A DNA stretch of 29,218 nt from an uncultured Planctomycetales bacterium (GCA_964506175.1 CAZDMB010000005.1:1-29218); one strand, 5' to 3'. Numbered from the stretch's first letter, positions 2,880 to 25,801 are shown. Numbers and translations: made by a program. The notes: generated by a model from the letters alone, not told the origin.

Positions 2880-4418
2880 TTGGGAATGCGGTTGACCGTG
2901 TAGTAGGCCTTGGTGTGCAGGAGGCTTGCGCCGGTCTCCGCGCGCAGGCCGTCGAGATCGAAGGCGTGCACGTGTCCGGCCACCATGCCATCGACGAACA
3001 GACGCACGCGCCGCCCGTCCGCCGACGGCTCGGCGCGCAGCACTCGCGCGGTGGTCTGATCCACTTCGGGGCTGCCGTAGTACTCCTGATAGACGTGGGT
3101 GAAGGTCTCGATGCGGTAATTGGCCGCGGTCGCCGCGCTGTCGTGCGCGACCGGCAGCGTGAAAGTCAGGAGGAAGCCGTCCGGTCGAATGACGATGCGC
3201 TCGATCTCGAACGGCGTCTTGCCCGTCCACTCGAGGCGCTCGAGGATGTGCCGGCGGTTGCCGCGCACCGGCCAGCCGCGATTGGTGCCGCCGGTCATGA
3301 GGTATCCCTGCGGCGAAAACTCCACGGACAAGATCCCTTGACCGAGGCCCTCGCGGAAGGGGTAGCAGGCGCCCTGCCACACCCCGTCCACCAGCTCGGT
3401 GGTGGCGCGCATCACCAGGCTCAGCGAGTAGTCGCCCAGGAACAACTGGCCGGCGAACGGCCCGAATCGGCCCTCGCTCGGATCGACGCGGAACGTCGTG
3501 ATGGACTGCCCCATCTTGCGATAGGGAAACACCACCGCGTAAGGCACCAACTGCTCGATGCGCTCGCATTCCGTCGCCAAGCGCGAGAGATTCTGCGGTT
3601 CGAGCGGCCTTTCTCCCATGCCTGCGGCCAAGGGCAGATCGTAGGCCGGAAAACTGGCGGGATGGCCCATGAAGCCGCCGCGACGCAGATGCTTCAGCGA
3701 GCAGGAGCCGTTCCACGGGCCTTGGCTCTCGGCGTAGAACATTTCGCCGGCCTCGTTCGGGGCCACGCCGCCGGCGCTGCGGATGCCGCTGGCGATCGGC
3801 AGCGAGCGGCCATCCGGAGTGACCTGGAACGCCCAGCCGCGAAATGGCGCCTTGTAGTTGTAGGACTCCGAGAGGCCCAGCACGACGTAGACGCTGCCGT
3901 CCGGAAGCACCGGCGAACCCCAGGCGAACTCGTGGTAGTGCTCGAAGCCCCAGCCTCCGCTTTCCCAAAAGATCTCTCTGGCGCGAGAATGTCCGCGCCC
4001 GGCGTCAGGTCATGCGTTGCTTTTCTGGTGGCTGAGACCGGGTCTCTTAAATCATTCGCGCCGTCGCGGTGTCGCCATCGCGGTCGGTGATGCGCGTCAA
4101 CTCGGTCTGCTGCGTGGCGTAGAAGGCGCCGTCGCGCCAGCCGAGCCCGAGCACCTCGTCGAGTCCGCTGGCGAAGCGCTGCACGCGCGGCTGCGGAATC
4201 TCGTCGAAGGCGCCGGTCACCAGCAGAATTTCACCGCGACGCGTGCCGATGGCGAGCCGGCCGTCCGGCAGCGCGCACATGCTGCCGGCCTCGAGCGCAA
4301 GCGCCGGATCGAAGGGCAACTCGACGATGCGGTAGTACTCCTCCTCGGCGCGCTCCGTGCCCCAGAAATCGCCCAGTTCCTGGACGGCCAATGCAGCCAA
4401 GGTGACGAGCATCATCAT
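2876..4418 (-). pseudogene. Planctomycete secreted beta-propeller protein (PVC-type membrane-bound dehydrogenase-like), interrupted at about 3959-4070
   Basis: The N-part starts at ATG 4418 (MMMLVTLAALAVQE...LTRITDRDGD) and ends at TAA 4047. The C-part (SGGWGFEHYHEFAWGSP...YAESQGPW...YYTVNRIPK) is in a different frame, open from 4009 to 2876. The two halves read as one protein family. The break may be a sequencing artefact rather than a true pseudogene. Confidence 0.7.
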
Positions 4419-6781
4419 CGGCCTTCCTCCCGCCACGCATATTCGACGGTCAATTCGCCGCGCCCGCCGCGGATGACGACGTCCACCAGCAGTTCGCTTT
4501 GCCCGCCGACCGGGCGAATGCGGAACGAACCCGGCGGCAGCCGCAGCAGCAGCGCATCGCCGACCCGGACCGCGCTCGCGCCGTCCTGAACGATGCGCTC
4601 CGCGAGGGCGGCGCGAAACTGCAGGGTCTGGTCCGCTGGGGCCGTCAGCGTGAGGGTGCGGCGCAGGAGCGGCCGTCCGCCCGGCGCCGCATCCGGGTCG
4701 GGCGCGGCGATCGGCGCGTCGGCGATGGCCACCTCGCCGCAGGTATAGCGAAACACCGGCCGTTGTTCGGCGTCGAGGTCGTAGCCGCGAAACTGCTGCC
4801 CGAGTTCGCGGCGCGAGGCCGCCGGCCACGGCGCGTCGGCAGCGGCCAGGACGGCAAAGCAAGGTCCGCTCGGCAGCGCGGCGCGCTCCGCGCCGAGAAT
4901 GCGCGCTTCGCCGCTGCCCTGCTCTGTCCACACGGAAGAAGCGTCGAGGAATCGGCCCCACCAGATCTGATTCATGCCCAGTCGCTCGGCGTCGAAGCTG
5001 AGATTGACGCCGCCGGGAAAGCCGACGCTGATCCCGCGCTTGCCGGTGTGCTGCACGCTGCGGCGCAAGATCACGGTTTCATCGCCCACCACCAGTTCGA
5101 GCGGCGGCCGGCGCATGCCCTGCGGCTTGCCGACGTTGCGGCCCGCGGCCAGGTAATGCCAGAGGGCGCTGATCTGCAGCGCGCCGTCGCCGCCGCCGAG
5201 TTCGGGACGCACGGTCTGGCCGCCGGGAAAGAACTGGGGCATCAGGGTGCCGGGTTTGAACTCCAGCGGCGCGCGCAGGAAGCGCGCGAACCACTCCGGT
5301 CGCAGGCGCCGTCCGGTGGAGTCCACCAAGTCCACGGCAGCCATGCCGCCCGCCGTCTCGCCGGCGAAGCTGTGGCACGAGATGCAGGCCATGCCCTTCT
5401 CGCCGGCGAGCTCGCGGCCGAGGTCGGTCATCGCGCGCGCCGCGTCCCCGTCTTCGGGCAGGGCTGCGACGGCCGCGGTCAGCGGCGGATCCGCCGCCTC
5501 CAGGCGGACAGCCAGCGCCGCCGCCAAGGCGTCCCCGAAGCCGGGCATGCGCGTGCGCAGATAGGGGCGCACGGACTGGCCATGGGCGATGGCATCCACC
5601 AGCCAATCGTGTTGCAACTTGGCGCCGACGCCCGTCAGCGGCGGCGGTTCGCGCCCTTCCGGCCCGAGATTGGGATCCGCGCCCGTGAACGAGGCGCCGC
5701 GCTCGGGCGCGATGCCGCCGAGATCGCCGCGCGCATGGCAGGCGACGCAATTGCGCGCCACGAGCAGTTGCCGCACGCTCTGCTCGCCGTCGAGCGTCGT
5801 GCCGAGCGCGGCCAGAGCGGCGCGGATGTCGGCGCGTTGCTCGGAGGACAGCGCGTAATCGGGCCACCTGCCGGGAGCGCCGGACAGACAGCCGCGGCCA
5901 GGGTTGAGGCTGGCCAACGGCGTCTGGGCGCGCGGCGGCGCGCGTTCCGCCGCGGGCACGGAGTGGCAGGCGGCGCATCCGAGTTCATGGAAGAGCGCGC
6001 GGCCCTGCGCCGCCGCGTCGGCGGTTTCCGCGGCGGCAGCCATGCCAGCCGCGGCGATGGGCGCGGCCGGCGATGCGATCAGATAGTGACTGAGATCGCG
6101 GGCTTCGCTCGGCGCCAGATGCAGGTCCGGCATGCGTCCCGCCGGCCGCGCCGCGAGCGGCGCGAGCAGGAAGGCGGCGAGGCTCGTCCGGGTGTACTTC
6201 TCCGCCAGCGGCGCGAGCGGCGCGCTGCCGGCGAGCGGCAGCTCCGCGCCGGAGGCGTCGCGGGGAGCATGGCAGGCCGCGCAACCGGACTCGTGGAACA
6301 GGGTGCGGCCCCGCGCTGCGGACTCCGGATCCTCCGCGTCAGGCGCGTCGCTCGCGAAGGCGGGCGGCGGCGGACCGAACGAAAGCAAGTAGGCGACCAG
6401 GGCGTCGGCGGCGGCGCTCCGCTCCTTTTCGCTCCGCGCGCCAAGCACGTCCGGCATGGTCGTGCCCGGCTCGACGCCGCGCGGGTCGGCGAGGAAGCGG
6501 CGCAGGTACGCGGGCTGCACCCGGCCGCCGACGGTCGCCAACTCCGGGCCGCGATGCGCATCCGCCTGCGGCTGTGTTGGCGCCTGCGCGTGACAGTTCA
6601 CGCAGCCGAGCTCACCCAGCAGAACGAGTCCGCGCGTGCGCGCCTCCAGACCCGTGCGCGCGAGCCCGGCGACGACGGGCGGCGCCGCGACGCGCTCCGG
6701 CGCGGCTTCGGAACAGGCGAGCAGCAGGGCGAGAACCGTCCCCCATGCTCCACAGGCGACGAGCGCCAGCCGATGGGACAT
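4415..6781 (-). CDS. Multihaem (5 CxxCH) cytochrome c, planctomycete type, exported
   Basis: 788 aa ORF with CVNCH, CAACH, CAACH, CVACH and CISCH, each followed by PGTxMP/GRMP/RMP distal-Met-type motifs; N-terminal signal or lipoprotein-like segment (LLLACS); stop overlaps the next start (ATGA). Confidence 0.85.
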   Translation of the reverse strand: MSHRLALVACGAWGTVLALLLACSEAAPERVAAPPVVAGLARTGLEARTRGLVLLGELGCVNCHAQAPTQPQADAHRGPELATVGGRVQPAYLRRFLADPRGVEPGTTMPDVLGARSEKERSAAADALVAYLLSFGPPPPAFASDAPDAEDPESAARGRTLFHESGCAACHAPRDASGAELPLAGSAPLAPLAEKYTRTSLAAFLLAPLAARPAGRMPDLHLAPSEARDLSHYLIASPAAPIAAAGMAAAAETADAAAQGRALFHELGCAACHSVPAAERAPPRAQTPLASLNPGRGCLSGAPGRWPDYALSSEQRADIRAALAALGTTLDGEQSVRQLLVARNCVACHARGDLGGIAPERGASFTGADPNLGPEGREPPPLTGVGAKLQHDWLVDAIAHGQSVRPYLRTRMPGFGDALAAALAVRLEAADPPLTAAVAALPEDGDAARAMTDLGRELAGEKGMACISCHSFAGETAGGMAAVDLVDSTGRRLRPEWFARFLRAPLEFKPGTLMPQFFPGGQTVRPELGGGDGALQISALWHYLAAGRNVGKPQGMRRPPLELVVGDETVILRRSVQHTGKRGISVGFPGGVNLSFDAERLGMNQIWWGRFLDASSVWTEQGSGEARILGAERAALPSGPCFAVLAAADAPWPAASRRELGQQFRGYDLDAEQRPVFRYTCGEVAIADAPIAAPDPDAAPGGRPLLRRTLTLTAPADQTLQFRAALAERIVQDGASAVRVGDALLLRLPPGSFRIRPVGGQSELLVDVVIRGGRGELTVEYAWREEGR

Positions 6782-20927: not shown

Positions 20928-21055
20928 GATTGGAAGAAAGGCTCCCTCCTTATCGGGCTGGAAGCGCCCTGGCATGAAACAAGACCTTGCCGTTGTCCTT
21001 CTGCTCCCGGATTCCGCGGCAACCCGGCCCGGTTCTGCCGATAAGAGGGACCGGG

Positions 21056-22555
21056 ATGCGGACCTCAAGGTCACTCGTCGGCGCGGCGTGCGCCGCCGCG
21101 GCGCTGACGGCTTGCCTCGCGGGCGGCGGGGGCACGCCCACGGGCGAGGCGGAACTGGACGTCCAGCTGGCCGCCCTCATCCTCGAGCACGGGCTCACCG
21201 GGAGGCCGGAACTCCTGGCCACGAACGAAGGCGAGAACCTCCCGCGCCTGGACGATCCGCTGGTCGAACTCGGCAAGCGCCTGTTCTTCACGCGCTCTCT
21301 CGGCGGCAACTTCACCTCGACCTGCGCGAGTTGCCACCATCCGCTGCTCGCCGGCGGCGACGCGCTCACCCTGCCGGTCGGGGTGGACGCGGTGGACCCG
21401 GCGCGCGTCGGCCCGGGCCGCCAGCAAGCGCCCGGCGCGGCGGGCTATGACGGCGGCCCCAACGTGCCGCGCAATTCCCCCACCACCTTCAACAGCGTGC
21501 TCTATCGCAAGGCGCTGTTCTGGGACGGCCGCGTGCGCCGCAATCCGCTGGACGGCGGCATCCTGACGCCGGATTCCGCCGGTCCGACCGCCAGCGACCC
21601 GGACGCGGGTCCCTCGCTGCTGGCCGCGCAGGCGCGCTTCCCCGTGACCTCGGAGGAGGAGATGCGCTCCTTCGACTTCGAGATCAACAGCACGCGCGCC
21701 GAGGTGCGCGCGCACCTGGCTGGCCGCCTCGGCCACTACGGCGCCGGCGTCGGCGAGATTCCGGATTCGTGGCTGCCGCTTTTTCGCCGCGCCTTCGATC
21801 AGCCCGCCGGCACCGCCCAGGACCTGATCCACTTCGGCACCATCAACCTCGCGCTCGCCGCGTATCAGGCCTCGCAATTGTTCGTGGACAATCCGTGGAA
21901 CCGCTACGTGCTGGGCGAGACCAAGGCCATCAGCACGGCGGCCAAGCGCGGCGCGCTCCTGTTCTTCCGCACGCCGGCGCACGGCGGCGCCGGTTGCGCC
22001 GCGTGCCATTCCGGCGATTTCTTCACCGACGAGGACTTCCACATCCTCGCCATGCCGCAGGTTGGACGCGGCAAGGGGGACGTCAACGAGCTCGGCGAAG
22101 CCACCGGCGACTTCGGCCGCTGGCAAGTGACGGGAGACGCCCGCGACAAATTCGCCTTCCGCACGCCGACCCTGCTGAACGCCGAGGTGAGCGCGCCCTA
22201 CGGCCATGACGGCGCCTACGACGCGCTGGCGGACGTGATCCGGCATCATCTGGACCCCGTCGGCATGGCCGCGAACTACTACTGGCCGCAGACGGACCCA
22301 GGCACGCAAGTGTCCTCGATGATCCAGAACACCGGCGAGGCGGTGGCGGCGCTGCTGGCGGCGCGGGCGCAAGGCCGCTCGCTGCTGCCGACCGGCGTGG
22401 CCCTGACCAATCAGGACCTCGGCGACCTGCTCGCCTTCATGAAGGCCCTGACGGACGCGCGGGTGAAATCCGCGGCGGCGCTGGAGCCGTGGGTGGCGCG
22501 CGATGACGCGCAATTCACCGACTCGCAGTTGCTCGACGCCAGTTTCCAGAACTGA
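21056..22555 (+). CDS. Di-haem cytochrome c peroxidase / MauG-like lipoprotein
   Basis: Start re-assigned to ATG 21056. Lipobox LTAC; CASCH and CAACH; RNSPTTFN, LFWDGR, FRTPTLLN and PYGHDG. Confidence 0.9.
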   Translation: MRTSRSLVGAACAAAALTACLAGGGGTPTGEAELDVQLAALILEHGLTGRPELLATNEGENLPRLDDPLVELGKRLFFTRSLGGNFTSTCASCHHPLLAGGDALTLPVGVDAVDPARVGPGRQQAPGAAGYDGGPNVPRNSPTTFNSVLYRKALFWDGRVRRNPLDGGILTPDSAGPTASDPDAGPSLLAAQARFPVTSEEEMRSFDFEINSTRAEVRAHLAGRLGHYGAGVGEIPDSWLPLFRRAFDQPAGTAQDLIHFGTINLALAAYQASQLFVDNPWNRYVLGETKAISTAAKRGALLFFRTPAHGGAGCAACHSGDFFTDEDFHILAMPQVGRGKGDVNELGEATGDFGRWQVTGDARDKFAFRTPTLLNAEVSAPYGHDGAYDALADVIRHHLDPVGMAANYYWPQTDPGTQVSSMIQNTGEAVAALLAARAQGRSLLPTGVALTNQDLGDLLAFMKALTDARVKSAAALEPWVARDDAQFTDSQLLDASFQN

Positions 22556-22576
22556 GCACGGCGCGTGGTTTGCCGC

Positions 22577-22582
22577 TAGCAT
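22577..22582 (+). promoter_or_regulatory. Putative -10 box (TAGCAT) 6 nt before ATG 22589
   Basis: Same TAnnnT geometry as at other genes; independently supports 22589 as the true start. Confidence 0.55.
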
Positions 22583-22588
22583 CCTCGG

Positions 22589-23248
22589 ATGCTCGCCGAA
22601 CTCCTCCTGCTCGCCCAGCAGCCCGCCACGGACGCCGCCGTCCCTTCATGACCCGTGTGACCGGGCGAAGGCCAGCCGGTTCGTTGGACCGGCGACACCG
22701 AGAAAGAGCGGCCATACACCTTCAGCCTGCGCTGGATTCCGAACATCGCGGTGGATCGGCCGCGCGTGCGCATGAACCTCGCCTACCGCGCGACCACGCG
22801 CCTGTCGGTGGCCCTGGAATACAACCCGCTCGCGGACGAGGTTCTGCCGAACTTCAACTACTCGCCCTCTTTGCCCGGCGAACACATCGAGGGCGTCGGC
22901 GCGATCGTGGGCCTTTCTTCCGACCGCATCGGCACCCCGAGCGGCGTCGCCTGGTTCGGGACGCTGTCCTGGAACGCGCAGGCGTGGAGCGACCTGCCGC
23001 TCTCCGGCTACGCCGGCCTCGCCTTCGGCACCTACGAGGACGAACTGCGGCCGATCGCCGGCGCCACCTGGAGTTTCAGCGACCGCATCTCCGCCGGCTT
23101 CATCCATGACGGCGAGAACCCGCACTGGATCGGTTCCTATGGCCTGGGCGAACTGGGCCCGGGCGGCGGCCTCTATCAGGCGGATCTGCTGATCATCGAG
23201 CAGGACGGCGTGCGCACCTTCGGCACCACGCTTTCCGTCCGCTTCTAG
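22589..23248 (+). CDS. Candidate selenoprotein: small outer-membrane beta-barrel-like protein with an N-terminal UxxU motif (219 aa if both TGA are decoded)
   Basis: ATG 22589 is in frame with track ORF 22751..23248: MLAELLLLA-QQPATDAAVPS-TGA(22649)-P-V-TGA(22658)-PGEGQPVRWTG... It has a signal peptide, amphipathic strands, SSDRIGTP, a C-terminal beta-signal-like TTLSVRF and a downstream hairpin. Confidence 0.75.
22675..22693 (+). promoter_or_regulatory. Bacterial SECIS-like stem-loop
   Basis: GCCGGU(UC)-GUU-(GG)ACCGGC: six Watson-Crick pairs plus U-G and C-G, with an apical G followed by U. The loop G (22683) lies 22 nt after the second UGA and 31 nt after the first. Confidence 0.65.
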
Positions 23249-23257
23249 AATGGCGCC

Positions 23258-25801
23258 ATGCGCGCGCTGGCGATGCTGACCGCCGCCGCCGCGGCCGCCT
23301 GGGCCGCGGCGCAGGAGCCCGCGGCCGCCGGCGCCGGCGAGGAAGGCCTGCGCCTGTTTCGCGAAGTCGTCGCGCCGACCTTCGCCGCGCAGTGCGCCGA
23401 ATGTCATGACGCCGCTCAACACAAAGGCGATCTGATCTTGACGACCCGCGAGGCCTTGGCGGCCGGCGGCGAAAACGGCGATCCGCTAGCGGGCGAGGAC
23501 CCGCTGCTGCTGCGGCTGATCGAGCACCGCGAGAAGCCCTTCATGCCGCGCAAGAAACCCGCGTTGGAGCCCGCGGTCATCGCGGGCATCCGCCGCTGGA
23601 TCGAACTCGGCGCGCCCTACGCGCACCCGATCGAGACGGAGGCGAGGCAGTGGTGGTCCTTCGGGGCGCTGCGCCCGCCGGCCGCGCCCCCCGGCGCCGG
23701 CCACCCGATCGACGCCTTCCTCGGCGCCGCGCCACCGCCCGCCGACCGCGCCACCTTGATCCGCCGTTTGTGGCTCGACCTGCTGGGCTTGTCGCCGACG
23801 CGCGCCGAGGTGGCGGCCTTCGTCGCCGACGCGCGGCCGAACGCCTGGGAGTTGCTGGTGGAGACCGCGCTCGCCAGCCCGCGCTACGGCGAACGCTGGG
23901 GCCGCCACTGGCTCGACGCCGCCCGCTACGCGGACAGCGCCGGCTACGAGTTCGACGTCGAGCGCCCCAACGCCTGGCCGTACCGCGACTTCGTCATCGA
24001 CGCCGTCAACGACGACCTGCCGTGGGACGAGTTCCTGCGCTGGCAACTTGCCGGCGACGAACTGGCGCCCGGCGACGCGCGCGCCGTGGCGGCGACCGGC
24101 TTCCTCGCGGCCGGCCCGCGCGTGGACAACCAGGTGCTCGAGGATCTGCGCTACGACGAGCTCGACGACATGCTGGCCACCACCGGCAGCGCGATGCTCG
24201 GCCTGACGGTGGCCTGCGCCCGCTGCCACGACCACAAGTACGACCCGATTCCGCAGAAGGATTACTACTCGATGCTGGCGGCCTTCACCAGCACGGAATT
24301 CGTGGACGCTCCCTTGCGCGGACAGAGTTCGGCGGCGGAAGTGCTGGCGGCGGCGCGGCGCAGCGCGTGGCGCTACGCCACCGCGGCGCCGCCGGCCGGC
24401 TGGGAGCGCGAAGGTTTCGACGACGGCGCCTGGAGCAGCGGCACGGGAGGCTTCGGCGCGCCGGGCACCCCGGGCGCGGAGCTCGGCACCGAGTGGCATG
24501 GCGCGGACATCTGGCTGCGGCGCAACTTCGCCTGGAAGGAGGCGCCGCTCGGCCTCTGGCTGCACCACGACGAGGACGTCGAAATCTTCCTCAATGGTGA
24601 AAAGATCTTCGCCGAAGCCGGCTTCCTGAAGGAATACGAGTTCGTCGAGCTGCCGGCGGCCAAGCCGCGGCCGAACGCGGACAACCTGCTGGCGGTGCAC
24701 TGCCGCCAGAGCGTCGGCGGCCAGTACGTGGACGTCATTCCGGTGAGCCGCGAGGATTTCGAGCGGGCGCGGCGGCACCTGGGCTCGGTGTTGGCGGTGC
24801 GCGACCGCGGCCCGGAGCCGGCGGAATCCTGGCTGCTCGAACGCGGCAACCCGGGAACCAAGAAGGAGCGCGTGACCCTCGGCTTCCTCACGGCGGTCGG
24901 CGACGGCAGCCGCAGCCCGGCGGACTACCTCGCGGCGGCGCGCGCCGGCTTGCAAGCCCGTGCTCAGGACGGCGCCGCGCCGCGCTCGACCGGCCAGCGC
25001 GCGGCCCTGGCGCTGTGGCTCACCGACGTCGCGCACGGGGCCGGCGCGCTGGCCGCGCGCGTGGCGGTGAACCGGATCTGGCAGCACCATTTCGGGCGAG
25101 GACTGATGGCCACCGCCGGCGACTTCGGCGCGCAGGGCGATCCGCCGGAGCATCCCGAATTGCTGGAGTGGCTGGCCGCCGACTTCGTGCGGCGCGGATG
25201 GTCGGTCAAGGAGATGCACCGCCTGATCCTGACGAGCGCGGCGTGGCGTCAGGCGGGAGCCGGCGCCGGCCCGCGCCGCCTCGAAGGCGAGATCGTCCGC
25301 GACCGCATCCTGCAGACGAGCGGCTGCCTGAACTTGGCGATGGGCGGCCCCGCGGTCCAGCCCTGGATCCACCCCGACGCGATCGCCACCGGCTCGACCA
25401 AGAAGTGGCCCGAAAACGTCGTGGACGGGCCGAACACCTGGCGGCGCAGCGTCTACGTGTTGATCCGGCGCAGCGTGATGTTCCCGATGTTCGAAGTGTT
25501 TGACGGGCCCACCGCGCAGCAGGCGTGCACGCGCCGCAACCTGACCACCACCCCCTTGCAGGCGCTCACGCTGCTCAACGACGCCTTCGTGCGCGACCAG
25601 GCGCGGCGCTTTGCGGCGCGGCTCGAACAGGAGCATCCCGGCGACCGGAGCGCGCAGGTCGAAGCCGCTTTCTGGGATGCGCTGGCGCGCGCGCCGACCG
25701 CGCAGGAACGCGCCGAAGCCCTGGAGTTTCTCGCGCGCAGCCCCCTGGCCGACTTCTGCCAGGTGCTGTTCGCCCTGGACGAGTTCGTGTACGTGGATTA
25801 G
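23258..25801 (+). CDS. Planctomycete cytochrome c + DUF1549 + DUF1553 (PSD1) protein with an inserted galactose-binding-like domain
   Basis: CAECH; WWSF...[68 protein letters not shown] and [15 protein letters not shown] lies 6 nt upstream. Confidence 0.93.

Follow-up and report, generated by a model that had tools for sequence, protein, structure and literature searches.

A probable double-selenocysteine (UxxU) outer-membrane barrel gene, hidden by two in-frame TGA codons, in an uncultured Planctomycetales bacterium

The DNA analysed here (hereafter the window) is a stretch of 29,218 nucleotides from an uncultured Planctomycetales bacterium (GCA_964506175.1, CAZDMB010000005.1:1-29218). At positions 22589-23248, on the plus strand like all the features described below, it contains what we propose to be a complete selenoprotein gene of 219 codons, two of which would be selenocysteine (Sec) codons. 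The ATG at 22589, two TGA codons and the open reading frame (ORF) ending with the TAG at 23246-23248 lie in a single frame, which is open to the C-terminal phenylalanine, F219. The gene begins with a leader of 20 codons, MLAELLLLAQQPATDAAVPS (22589-22648), whose short hydrophobic N-terminus is probably an atypical signal peptide and which ends with a conserved V-P-S. UGA-1 (22649-22651, codon 21, proposed Sec21) and UGA-2 (22658-22660, codon 24, proposed Sec24) follow, within the peptide S-U-P-V-U-P-G, the whole N-terminus reading MLAELLLLAQQPATDAAVPS-U-PV-U-PGEGQPVRWTG... A hairpin resembling a selenocysteine insertion sequence (SECIS) is located inside the coding region at 22675-22693, and the rest of the gene (22715-23245, residues 43-219) would encode a 12-stranded beta-barrel domain with a phenylalanine at its end.

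The first ATG, GTG or TTG codon after UGA-2 is the GTG at 22751, 30 codons further on, and the peptide encoded in between is conserved. The public annotation (P0001, 158 amino acids) begins later still, at the ATG at 22772. The original prediction, made from the sequence of the window, had extended the ORF in frame through the two TGAs to the ATG at 22589 and had anticipated that standard gene callers would truncate the gene; its coordinates are confirmed, and P0001 is indeed a truncated form. When the family profile was searched against the genome of the organism itself, the match covered 22616-23245, with two TGAs inside. As the window has a G+C content of about 70%, TGA codons upstream of an ORF are unremarkable when considered alone, and the argument has to come from homologous loci.

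Proteins homologous to the downstream part are annotated as "hypothetical"; their ORFs measure 140-186 amino acids and contain no Pfam domain. The DNA of four of these homologues contains two in-frame TGAs in the same peptide context, even at 38% identity. Wider scans recovered 433 relatives from a set of 185,579 species-representative genomes, and metagenomes yielded more than 565. The 166 loci analysed, made up of the best 80 of each scan and of loci fetched earlier, come from Planctomycetota, Acidobacteriota and one Verrucomicrobiota metagenome-assembled genome (MAG). The first and second sites are TGA/TGA in 162 of these 166 loci, TGC/TGA in three and TGA/TAA in one. When distinct sequences are considered (n = 140), the UGA-1 site is TGA in 137 and TGC in 3, and the UGA-2 site is TGA in 139 and TAA in 1. 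TAG is present at neither site, and the sole sense codon found there is TGC, which encodes cysteine.

Both codons are embedded in a near-invariant motif, (S/A)-x-V-P-S-U-P-(L/V/M/I)-U-P-G-E-G. The flanking codons vary mostly at the third position, with variabilities of 0.13, 0.09 and 0.49 for the first, second and third bases, respectively. AGY as well as TCN codons occur for the serine preceding the first Sec (U1), and the P, G, E and G following the second (U2) are invariant as residues, all their synonymous codons being used. This conservation of residues with synonymous wobble indicates that selection is acting on a continuous polypeptide through both TGAs. Moreover, 103 of the 166 family genes terminate with TGA, which implies that this codon is not reassigned in these organisms. 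In a sample of the phylum, 10 of 301 genomes (about 3%) carry the gene, all 10 with the two TGAs inside, a scattered distribution of the kind expected for a trait that depends on Sec use.

The two TGAs could alternatively be true stops, a very small leader ORF (in Acidobacteria, the TlpA gene) ending at the first one and the barrel being separately translated from a start further downstream; in that case they would be conserved because of overlapping signals for regulation or coupling. Gene callers annotate the loci in this way, and genes in these genomes end with TGA more often than with any other stop. However, it is the peptide flanking and between the TGAs that is conserved, with its synonymous wobble, and the window offers no start codon for 30 codons past UGA-2. 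Furthermore, TAG never replaces either TGA, TAA does so only once, TGC is the only sense codon at these sites, and relatives have cysteines at both of them (see below). A separately translated barrel would lose the leader and the conserved N-terminal arm, and a barrel starting from the public ATG at 22772 would also lose strand 1 and part of strand 2. True termination at these codons thus appears very improbable.

The only TAA was found in one MAG copy (L089, near 3010-3020), which reads TGA-ccc-gtg-TAA and represents a pseudogene or an assembly error. Another copy in this MAG (L046) has both TGAs.

To these loci can be added the relatives obtained at the protein level. When 1.84 billion representative proteins were searched exhaustively with HMMER, 287 relatives were obtained, most of which are shortened gene calls starting just past the second TGA. 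Six full-length proteins forming a divergent branch (P0113, P0114, P0135, P0155, P0159 and P0163) read ...APT-C-AG-C-AGEAR..., with both cysteines in the Sec columns of the alignment. As this is the classic test of Sec/Cys equivalence, the alignment shows that the equivalence holds at both positions. The spacing of the TGAs as in a CxxC motif, which had drawn attention to the locus, is therefore mirrored among the aligned homologues, where UxxU, CxxU and CxxC are all found at this position. Two aligned relatives have neither Cys nor Sec at these positions, one of them being a tandem paralogue in Rohdeia mirabilis.

Two individual variants can be described here. P0085, a protein of 209 amino acids from the representative library, reads VPA-C-VG-W-PGEG, with a cysteine at the first site and a tryptophan at the second; it could be a fossil of Sec loss, TGG being one base from TGA. 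The Rohdeia mirabilis Pla163 paralogue (P0046, 249 amino acids; locus L087, about 2100-2900) is located upstream of the Sec copy at 3043 and reads VPL-A-PV-S-PGLG. The Sec positions are occupied by Ala and Ser, making it a natural version of the protein without selenium and without cysteine.

The parent MAG, which is 81% complete, contains selA (452 bits), selB (283 bits) and a tRNA-Sec gene (75 bits) adjoining selD, so that selA, selB, selC and selD, the four genes proposed at the outset as a check on the Sec reading, are all present. Its selD (G000 contig C79, 8814-9971; L010, L019) has an in-frame TGA (...CAG-U-AAK...) and thus appears to be itself a selenoprotein gene. selA and tRNA-Sec were also found in five of the five other carrier genomes tested, including the complete genomes of two cultured strains, Engelhardtia mirabilis Pla133 and Rohdeia mirabilis Pla163 (loci L052 and L087).

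The TGAs themselves are found again in independent data. A contig from a sludge DNA run matches the window exactly across both TGAs. A strain from an independent biofilm metagenome differs by 15 substitutions in 22462-23002, which leave both TGAs intact. The two TGAs and the annotated start are also bridged by a contig from a metatranscriptome, which covers 22611-22868 and has a T>C change at 22681. Contigs from independent runs (X1, X7 and X16) thus show TGA, UGA-1 being unchanged in all three, and not the TGC or TGG codons that would speak against Sec. A pseudogene, a sequencing error and a reassigned code had been considered as other explanations; they are ruled out by conservation, by the independent contigs and by the TGA terminators of the family's own genes.

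The presence of a hairpin downstream of the TGAs, also part of the original prediction, was then supported by its position and by compensatory changes. The hairpin at 22675-22693 is composed of an 8-bp stem, GCCGGUUC / GGACCGGC, with the loop GUU. It starts 14 nt past UGA-2 and 23 nt past UGA-1, and the G of its loop lies at distances of 22 and 31 nt from UGA-2 and UGA-1, respectively. Bacterial SECIS predictors accept a UGA-to-loop distance of 16-37 nt, a range in which both distances fall.

Covariation was assessed in the Planctomycete-type group, represented by 86 distinct sequences. Over the eight stem pairs, 91% of the cells are paired, compared to 76% in column shuffles, and none of 1000 shuffles reaches 91%, although the shuffle control ignores phylogeny and these pairing statistics therefore overstate independence. 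When the 3' partners are shifted by 1-3 nt (with one extra outer pair), pairing is only 23-51%, compared to 85% in register. Double-sided compensation is observed at six of the eight stem pairs, one pair being GC in 39 cases, CG in 34 and UA in 4. The apical loop is GUG, GUU or GGG; it invariably opens with G, and the next base is U in 75 of the 86 sequences. The Arg codon that supplies this G-U is CGT in the same proportion (75/86) despite the high G+C content, a preference that suggests a constraint at the RNA level. The residues encoded by the stem change along with it, and the variety of compensated stems would be hard to explain otherwise. In run X16, the T>C polymorphism at 22681 changes a stem pair from U-G to C-G. 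The SECIS of the organism's own selD also has GUU as its apical loop, 33 nt after the selD UGA.

The Acidobacterial hairpin differs. It is shorter, with 3+3 bp around a G-G mismatch and the loop CGUGA, and contains one UA-to-CG compensatory pair. In Acidobacteria, the spacer between the two UGAs is also complementary to GAGCGG and is thus a candidate for a long-range pairing, which is near-invariant and competes with the local hairpin. No common hairpin was found by RNAalifold when all sequences were treated jointly, since the Planctomycete hairpin is not shared by the Acidobacterial group. The RNA fold of the whole region is not more stable than that of shuffled sequences (z = -0.44), so that the support for the hairpin comes from covariation and not from energy.

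These results are consistent with a mechanism in which SelA, SelB, SelC and SelD of the organism would decode both UGAs as selenocysteine. A single hairpin within the coding sequence, with a G-U apical loop and located 14 nt after UGA-2, probably directs both insertions. It resembles the SECIS of the Escherichia coli fdhF type, which is likewise a hairpin just 3' of the UGA within the ORF, with G-U opening a small apical loop, and its UGA-to-loop distance is within the range of the predictors. It differs from it in that a single element seems to act on a pair of UGAs separated by 9 nt, and in that the Acidobacterial version is a different, shorter and interrupted stem. With the exception of one SECIS for two nearby UGAs, the mechanism of Sec insertion is ordinary.

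Another possibility is that the UGAs are read through without Sec, by near-cognate insertion of Trp or Cys or by a local recoding event. P0085, with Cys and Trp at the two sites, indicates that other residues can be tolerated there. But such a read-through would account neither for the presence of the Sec machinery in every carrier genome tested, nor for a covarying SECIS-type hairpin with a G-U loop at the canonical distance, nor for the patchy spread of a gene found in about 3% of the phylum sample and always with both TGAs. We regard it as having very little chance of being correct. All these comparisons make it very likely that the protein is a genuine UxxU selenoprotein, in which both UGAs are Sec.

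The leader was examined in the same comparative way. Acidobacterial forms open with textbook signal peptides, and many Planctomycete forms have hydrophobic leaders of 10-20 residues, ending A-Q-(E/D)-P or A-x-A, 9-35 residues ahead of U1. There is little doubt, to judge from these relatives, that the family is extracytoplasmic. The signal peptide initially proposed for the window copy, MLAELLLLA-QQ, is therefore only partly supported: relatives do have hydrophobic leaders at this place, but that of the window is weak and lacks a basic n-region. The sequence MLAELLLLAQQ is very short, contains no basic residue, has a Glu at position 4 and offers no more than five hydrophobic residues in a row; three codons upstream of the ATG, the frame is closed by a TAG. 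Export of the window copy and its insertion into the outer membrane are inferred from relatives and are not certain.

It could thus be that the family is real and that the window copy is impaired, its leader being too short or too acidic and the protein being poorly made or mistargeted. The features of the leader just described and the upstream TAG point in this direction, as does the longer, basic n-region of one relative (L013). On the other hand, the short leader type (M-x-x-x-x-LLLLLQ) recurs in L016, L027-L029, L107, L111 and L113; since it is found again in the closest relatives, it appears to be a property of the clade and not damage. The remainder of the gene is also intact, including in strain variants. 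Impairment of the window copy seems unlikely.

To get insight into the structure of the protein, an AlphaFold2 model was built from an alignment of 44 sequences, cysteine standing in for U. The model (mean predicted local distance difference test score, pLDDT, of 87; predicted template modelling score of 0.83) has twelve antiparallel strands over residues 43-218. Its best structural matches are KdgM (Z = 16.4), the NalP translocator (15.5), FapF (15.2) and the COG4313 channel (4RL8; 15.2), followed at lower Z by EstA, NanC, LpxR and others. In the exhaustive structural search, all the top ranks are occupied by 12-stranded outer-membrane barrels, and Foldseek matches are NanC, KdgM and FapF. 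F219 at the C-terminus, the aromatic residue expected of a beta-signal, is near-invariant, and G212, seven residues earlier, is invariant. It is thus highly probable, on the basis of this model, that the protein is a 12-stranded outer-membrane barrel, in agreement with the barrel-like strands and terminal Phe of the original prediction.

The barrel loops are very short, and the invariant segment G-T-S-S-D-R-I-G-T-P corresponds to the third outward loop. Strand alternation indicates that the invariant polar residues R48, R57, R61, E77, N79 and D174 are probably lumen-facing. The UxxU segment has a pLDDT of 60-76, and several of the alignments to the plugged barrels NalP, COG4313 and FapF begin at model residues 11-24, which is compatible with entry of the arm into the lumen.

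The likeness to known barrels is one of fold and not of family. The protein shares 12 antiparallel strands with KdgM/NanC, FapF, NalP, EstA and COG4313 (4RL8), with Z of 14-16 and a root-mean-square deviation of 2.4-2.8 Å, but identity is only 5-12%, its loops are very short, and these known barrels have neither a Sec nor a CxxC arm. FapF, NalP and COG4313 also have an N-terminal segment associated with the pore, and FapF in particular, in which a linker and then a plug separate the periplasmic N-terminal domain from the barrel, resembles the TlpA-fused relatives described below. Neither PF06178 (KdgM/NanC) nor PF13557 (COG4313/Phenol_MetA_deg) gave a Pfam match at E <= 1, comparison with a neighbouring PF13557-like barrel by hhalign gave a probability of 0.7%, which means no relationship, and a profile search of PDB sequences gave nothing meaningful.

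Domain associations in relatives give indications on the function. Many loci have a long ORF in frame ahead of U1, and the most populated cluster of this kind comprises 38 of 105 dereplicated loci, mostly from Acidobacteriota. This fused ORF encodes a TlpA/ResA-like AhpC-TSA/Redoxin domain, which has a W-C-x-P-C site of its own, together with a signal peptide and, frequently, a Cys-rich domain, and it continues via a charged or His-rich linker into ...S-S-V-P-S-U-P-L-U... The UxxU motif is then located about 130 residues downstream of the thioredoxin-fold domain, in the linker, and the model of a 497-residue fused protein has three folded domains, with UxxU in a disordered tether. The linkers of some relatives are strikingly His-rich. 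A Cation_efflux (cation diffusion facilitator, CDF) gene lies downstream of the barrel, on the same strand, in 7-13 loci, both Planctomycete and Acidobacterial.

At L018, for instance, the TlpA-like gene and the barrel ORF form one frame (3032-4525) joined by the two TGAs, and L050, L053, L056, L057, L061, L065 and others are similar. Public calls split a gene of the L018 type into a "redoxin" of 313 amino acids and a hypothetical protein of 174 amino acids. Among the Cys-type proteins, P0135 and P0163 carry metal-binding YHS domains at the N-terminus, one or two per protein (PF04945, E = 5e-18 and 2e-12), which parallel the TlpA fusions of the Sec-type proteins. The loci followed by a CDF gene include L043, L044, L047, L049, L073 and L083.

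TlpA, a periplasmic thioredoxin, is the classic reductant of copper-site cysteines. As with TlpA and its partners ScoI/CoxB, or with YHS/TRASH domains, relatives fuse TlpA-like (Sec type) or YHS (Cys type) domains upstream of the motif, which suggests a reductant acting on a metal-binding chalcogen pair. In contrast to these systems, the window protein has neither domain, and the link is a domain association in relatives. Taken together, the TlpA-like fusions, His-rich linkers, YHS domains and CDF neighbours favour soft-metal-binding selenolates that would be located at the mouth of a small outer-membrane channel and kept reduced by a dedicated reductase of the periplasm. We tentatively place a role in metal handling at slightly less than an even chance.

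The mature product would then consist of a short, cleavable or anchoring leader, a flexible arm, V-P-S-U-P-V-U-P-G-E-G, and a compact 12-stranded barrel ending in Phe. The arm could be located at the periplasmic mouth of the barrel or in its lumen, like the plug segments of FapF, NalP and COG4313. Its two selenols might bind a soft metal of the Cu, Zn, Cd or Hg type, or might cycle between diselenide and selenols, and in many relatives they would be kept reduced by the TlpA-like thioredoxin domain of the same polypeptide. One rather doubtful scenario would be a so far undescribed system of the envelope, a minimal 12-stranded channel whose two-selenolate arm captures or gates Cu(I), Zn, Cd or Hg, often recharged by TlpA, the fused genes giving two products in a ratio set by selenium supply. 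For these fused genes, we speculate that termination at UGA-1 would give a free periplasmic reductase, and Sec insertion a barrel-tethered one.

The arm could instead be a redox catalyst, UxxU cycling between diselenide and selenols and reducing peroxides, disulfides or another oxidant at the outer membrane. The TlpA-like domain would recharge it, and reducing power may be relayed through the barrel. UxxU is the selenium analogue of CxxC redox motifs, Prx-like UxxC/UxxU proteins have been catalogued (PMC13188914), a thioredoxin-fold reductase domain is fused in many relatives and a di-haem peroxidase lies upstream in the window. But the motif is on a disordered arm, outside any thioredoxin fold, and the His-rich linkers, YHS fusions and CDF neighbours indicate metals. 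The presence of TlpA fits both roles, as TlpA also reduces copper-site cysteines. Such a catalytic role is in our opinion rather unlikely, and metal handling by the selenolates is retained as the favoured function.

In the window, the gene lies between that of a MauG-like di-haem cytochrome c peroxidase (20987-22555; PF03150, E = 2.4e-26) and that of a PSCyt1/PSCyt2/PSD1 (DUF1549/DUF1553) protein (23258-25801), given here as context only. This MauG-like/PSCyt-PSD1 synteny is limited to the closest 5-7 relatives: the MauG-like neighbour is also found in L013, L016 and a few others, and the PSCyt/PSD1 order in L013, L015 and L016. The MauG-like protein of the window scores 190, 119 and 104 bits with the MauG, MbnH and His-Xaa-Ser-system models, all below their cut-offs, and may be a separate subfamily. 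A scan for sigma-70 promoters around the TAGCAT upstream of the gene, initially seen as promoter-like, found none, and this part of the original prediction is abandoned.

Several points weigh against the whole explanation, namely one gene encoding a double-Sec outer-membrane barrel with a UxxU arm. Beside the atypical leader already discussed, one hairpin would need to direct insertion at both UGAs, which are separated by 9 nt and precede it by 14 and 23 nt. The arm is modelled with moderate confidence (pLDDT of 60-76 here and below 57 in the Acidobacterial fusion), and its position relative to the barrel is accordingly tentative. A universal operon partner was sought and none was found, as neighbourhoods vary, and the neighbours in the window, the MauG-like peroxidase and the DUF1549/1553 protein, are not metal genes. 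Finally, a contig from an RNA library is in itself no proof of transcription. With these points included, we give this explanation a probability of about 0.85.

A review of May 2026 lists 119 families of prokaryotic selenoproteins (PMC13188914, Table 1). In this catalogue, UxxU is present only in Prx-like oxidoreductases, the NF041115 metal-binding protein and an FmdB-type protein, and the outer-membrane Sec barrels are the GSU2204/MtrB-PioB family and a TonB-dependent receptor (PMC13188914). None of its families corresponds to that of the window, scans of the shortened and read-through proteins against Pfam and NCBIfam release 20 gave no family match, and full-text literature searches gave no description of the family. 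The family is thus absent from Pfam, NCBIfam and the 2026 catalogue, and we treat it as uncatalogued: its kind is known (a Sec-for-Cys metal or redox motif with standard Sec machinery), and its architecture is new.

With NF041115 ("metal-binding (seleno)protein / putative mercuric reductase"), the Prx-like proteins (PF00578) and FmdB, it shares a U-x-x-U equivalent to CxxC, the existence of Cys homologues and a presumed role in soft-metal binding or redox. It differs from them by the absence of any sequence match and by a motif carried on a disordered arm and not on an HMA, thioredoxin or zinc-ribbon fold. In particular, the read-through protein gives no NCBIfam match to the HMA-type NF041115 model, and the window protein lacks the thioredoxin-fold domain of the PF00578 selenoprotein. 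GSU2204/MtrB-PioB (NF041027) and the TonB-dependent receptor with an FCYXU motif (NF049945) similarly carry Sec in an outer-membrane barrel, but they have one Sec and much larger barrels, and their hidden Markov models do not match the window protein.

If confirmed, these results would add a widespread family to the prokaryotic selenoproteome, which would be among the very few with two adjacent Sec and among the very few in the outer membrane. They also reveal a systematic annotation error, as the public calls examined are leaderless, shortened ORFs or, in Acidobacteria, TlpA proteins split from their barrel. As the gene is present in two cultured strains with complete genomes, the prediction is directly testable, and the family would constitute a natural system for studying how one SECIS serves UGAs three codons apart. 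Finally, it would link selenium use to the handling of metals or redox in the envelope of Planctomycetota and Acidobacteriota, which are abundant, little-studied bacteria of soil and wastewater.

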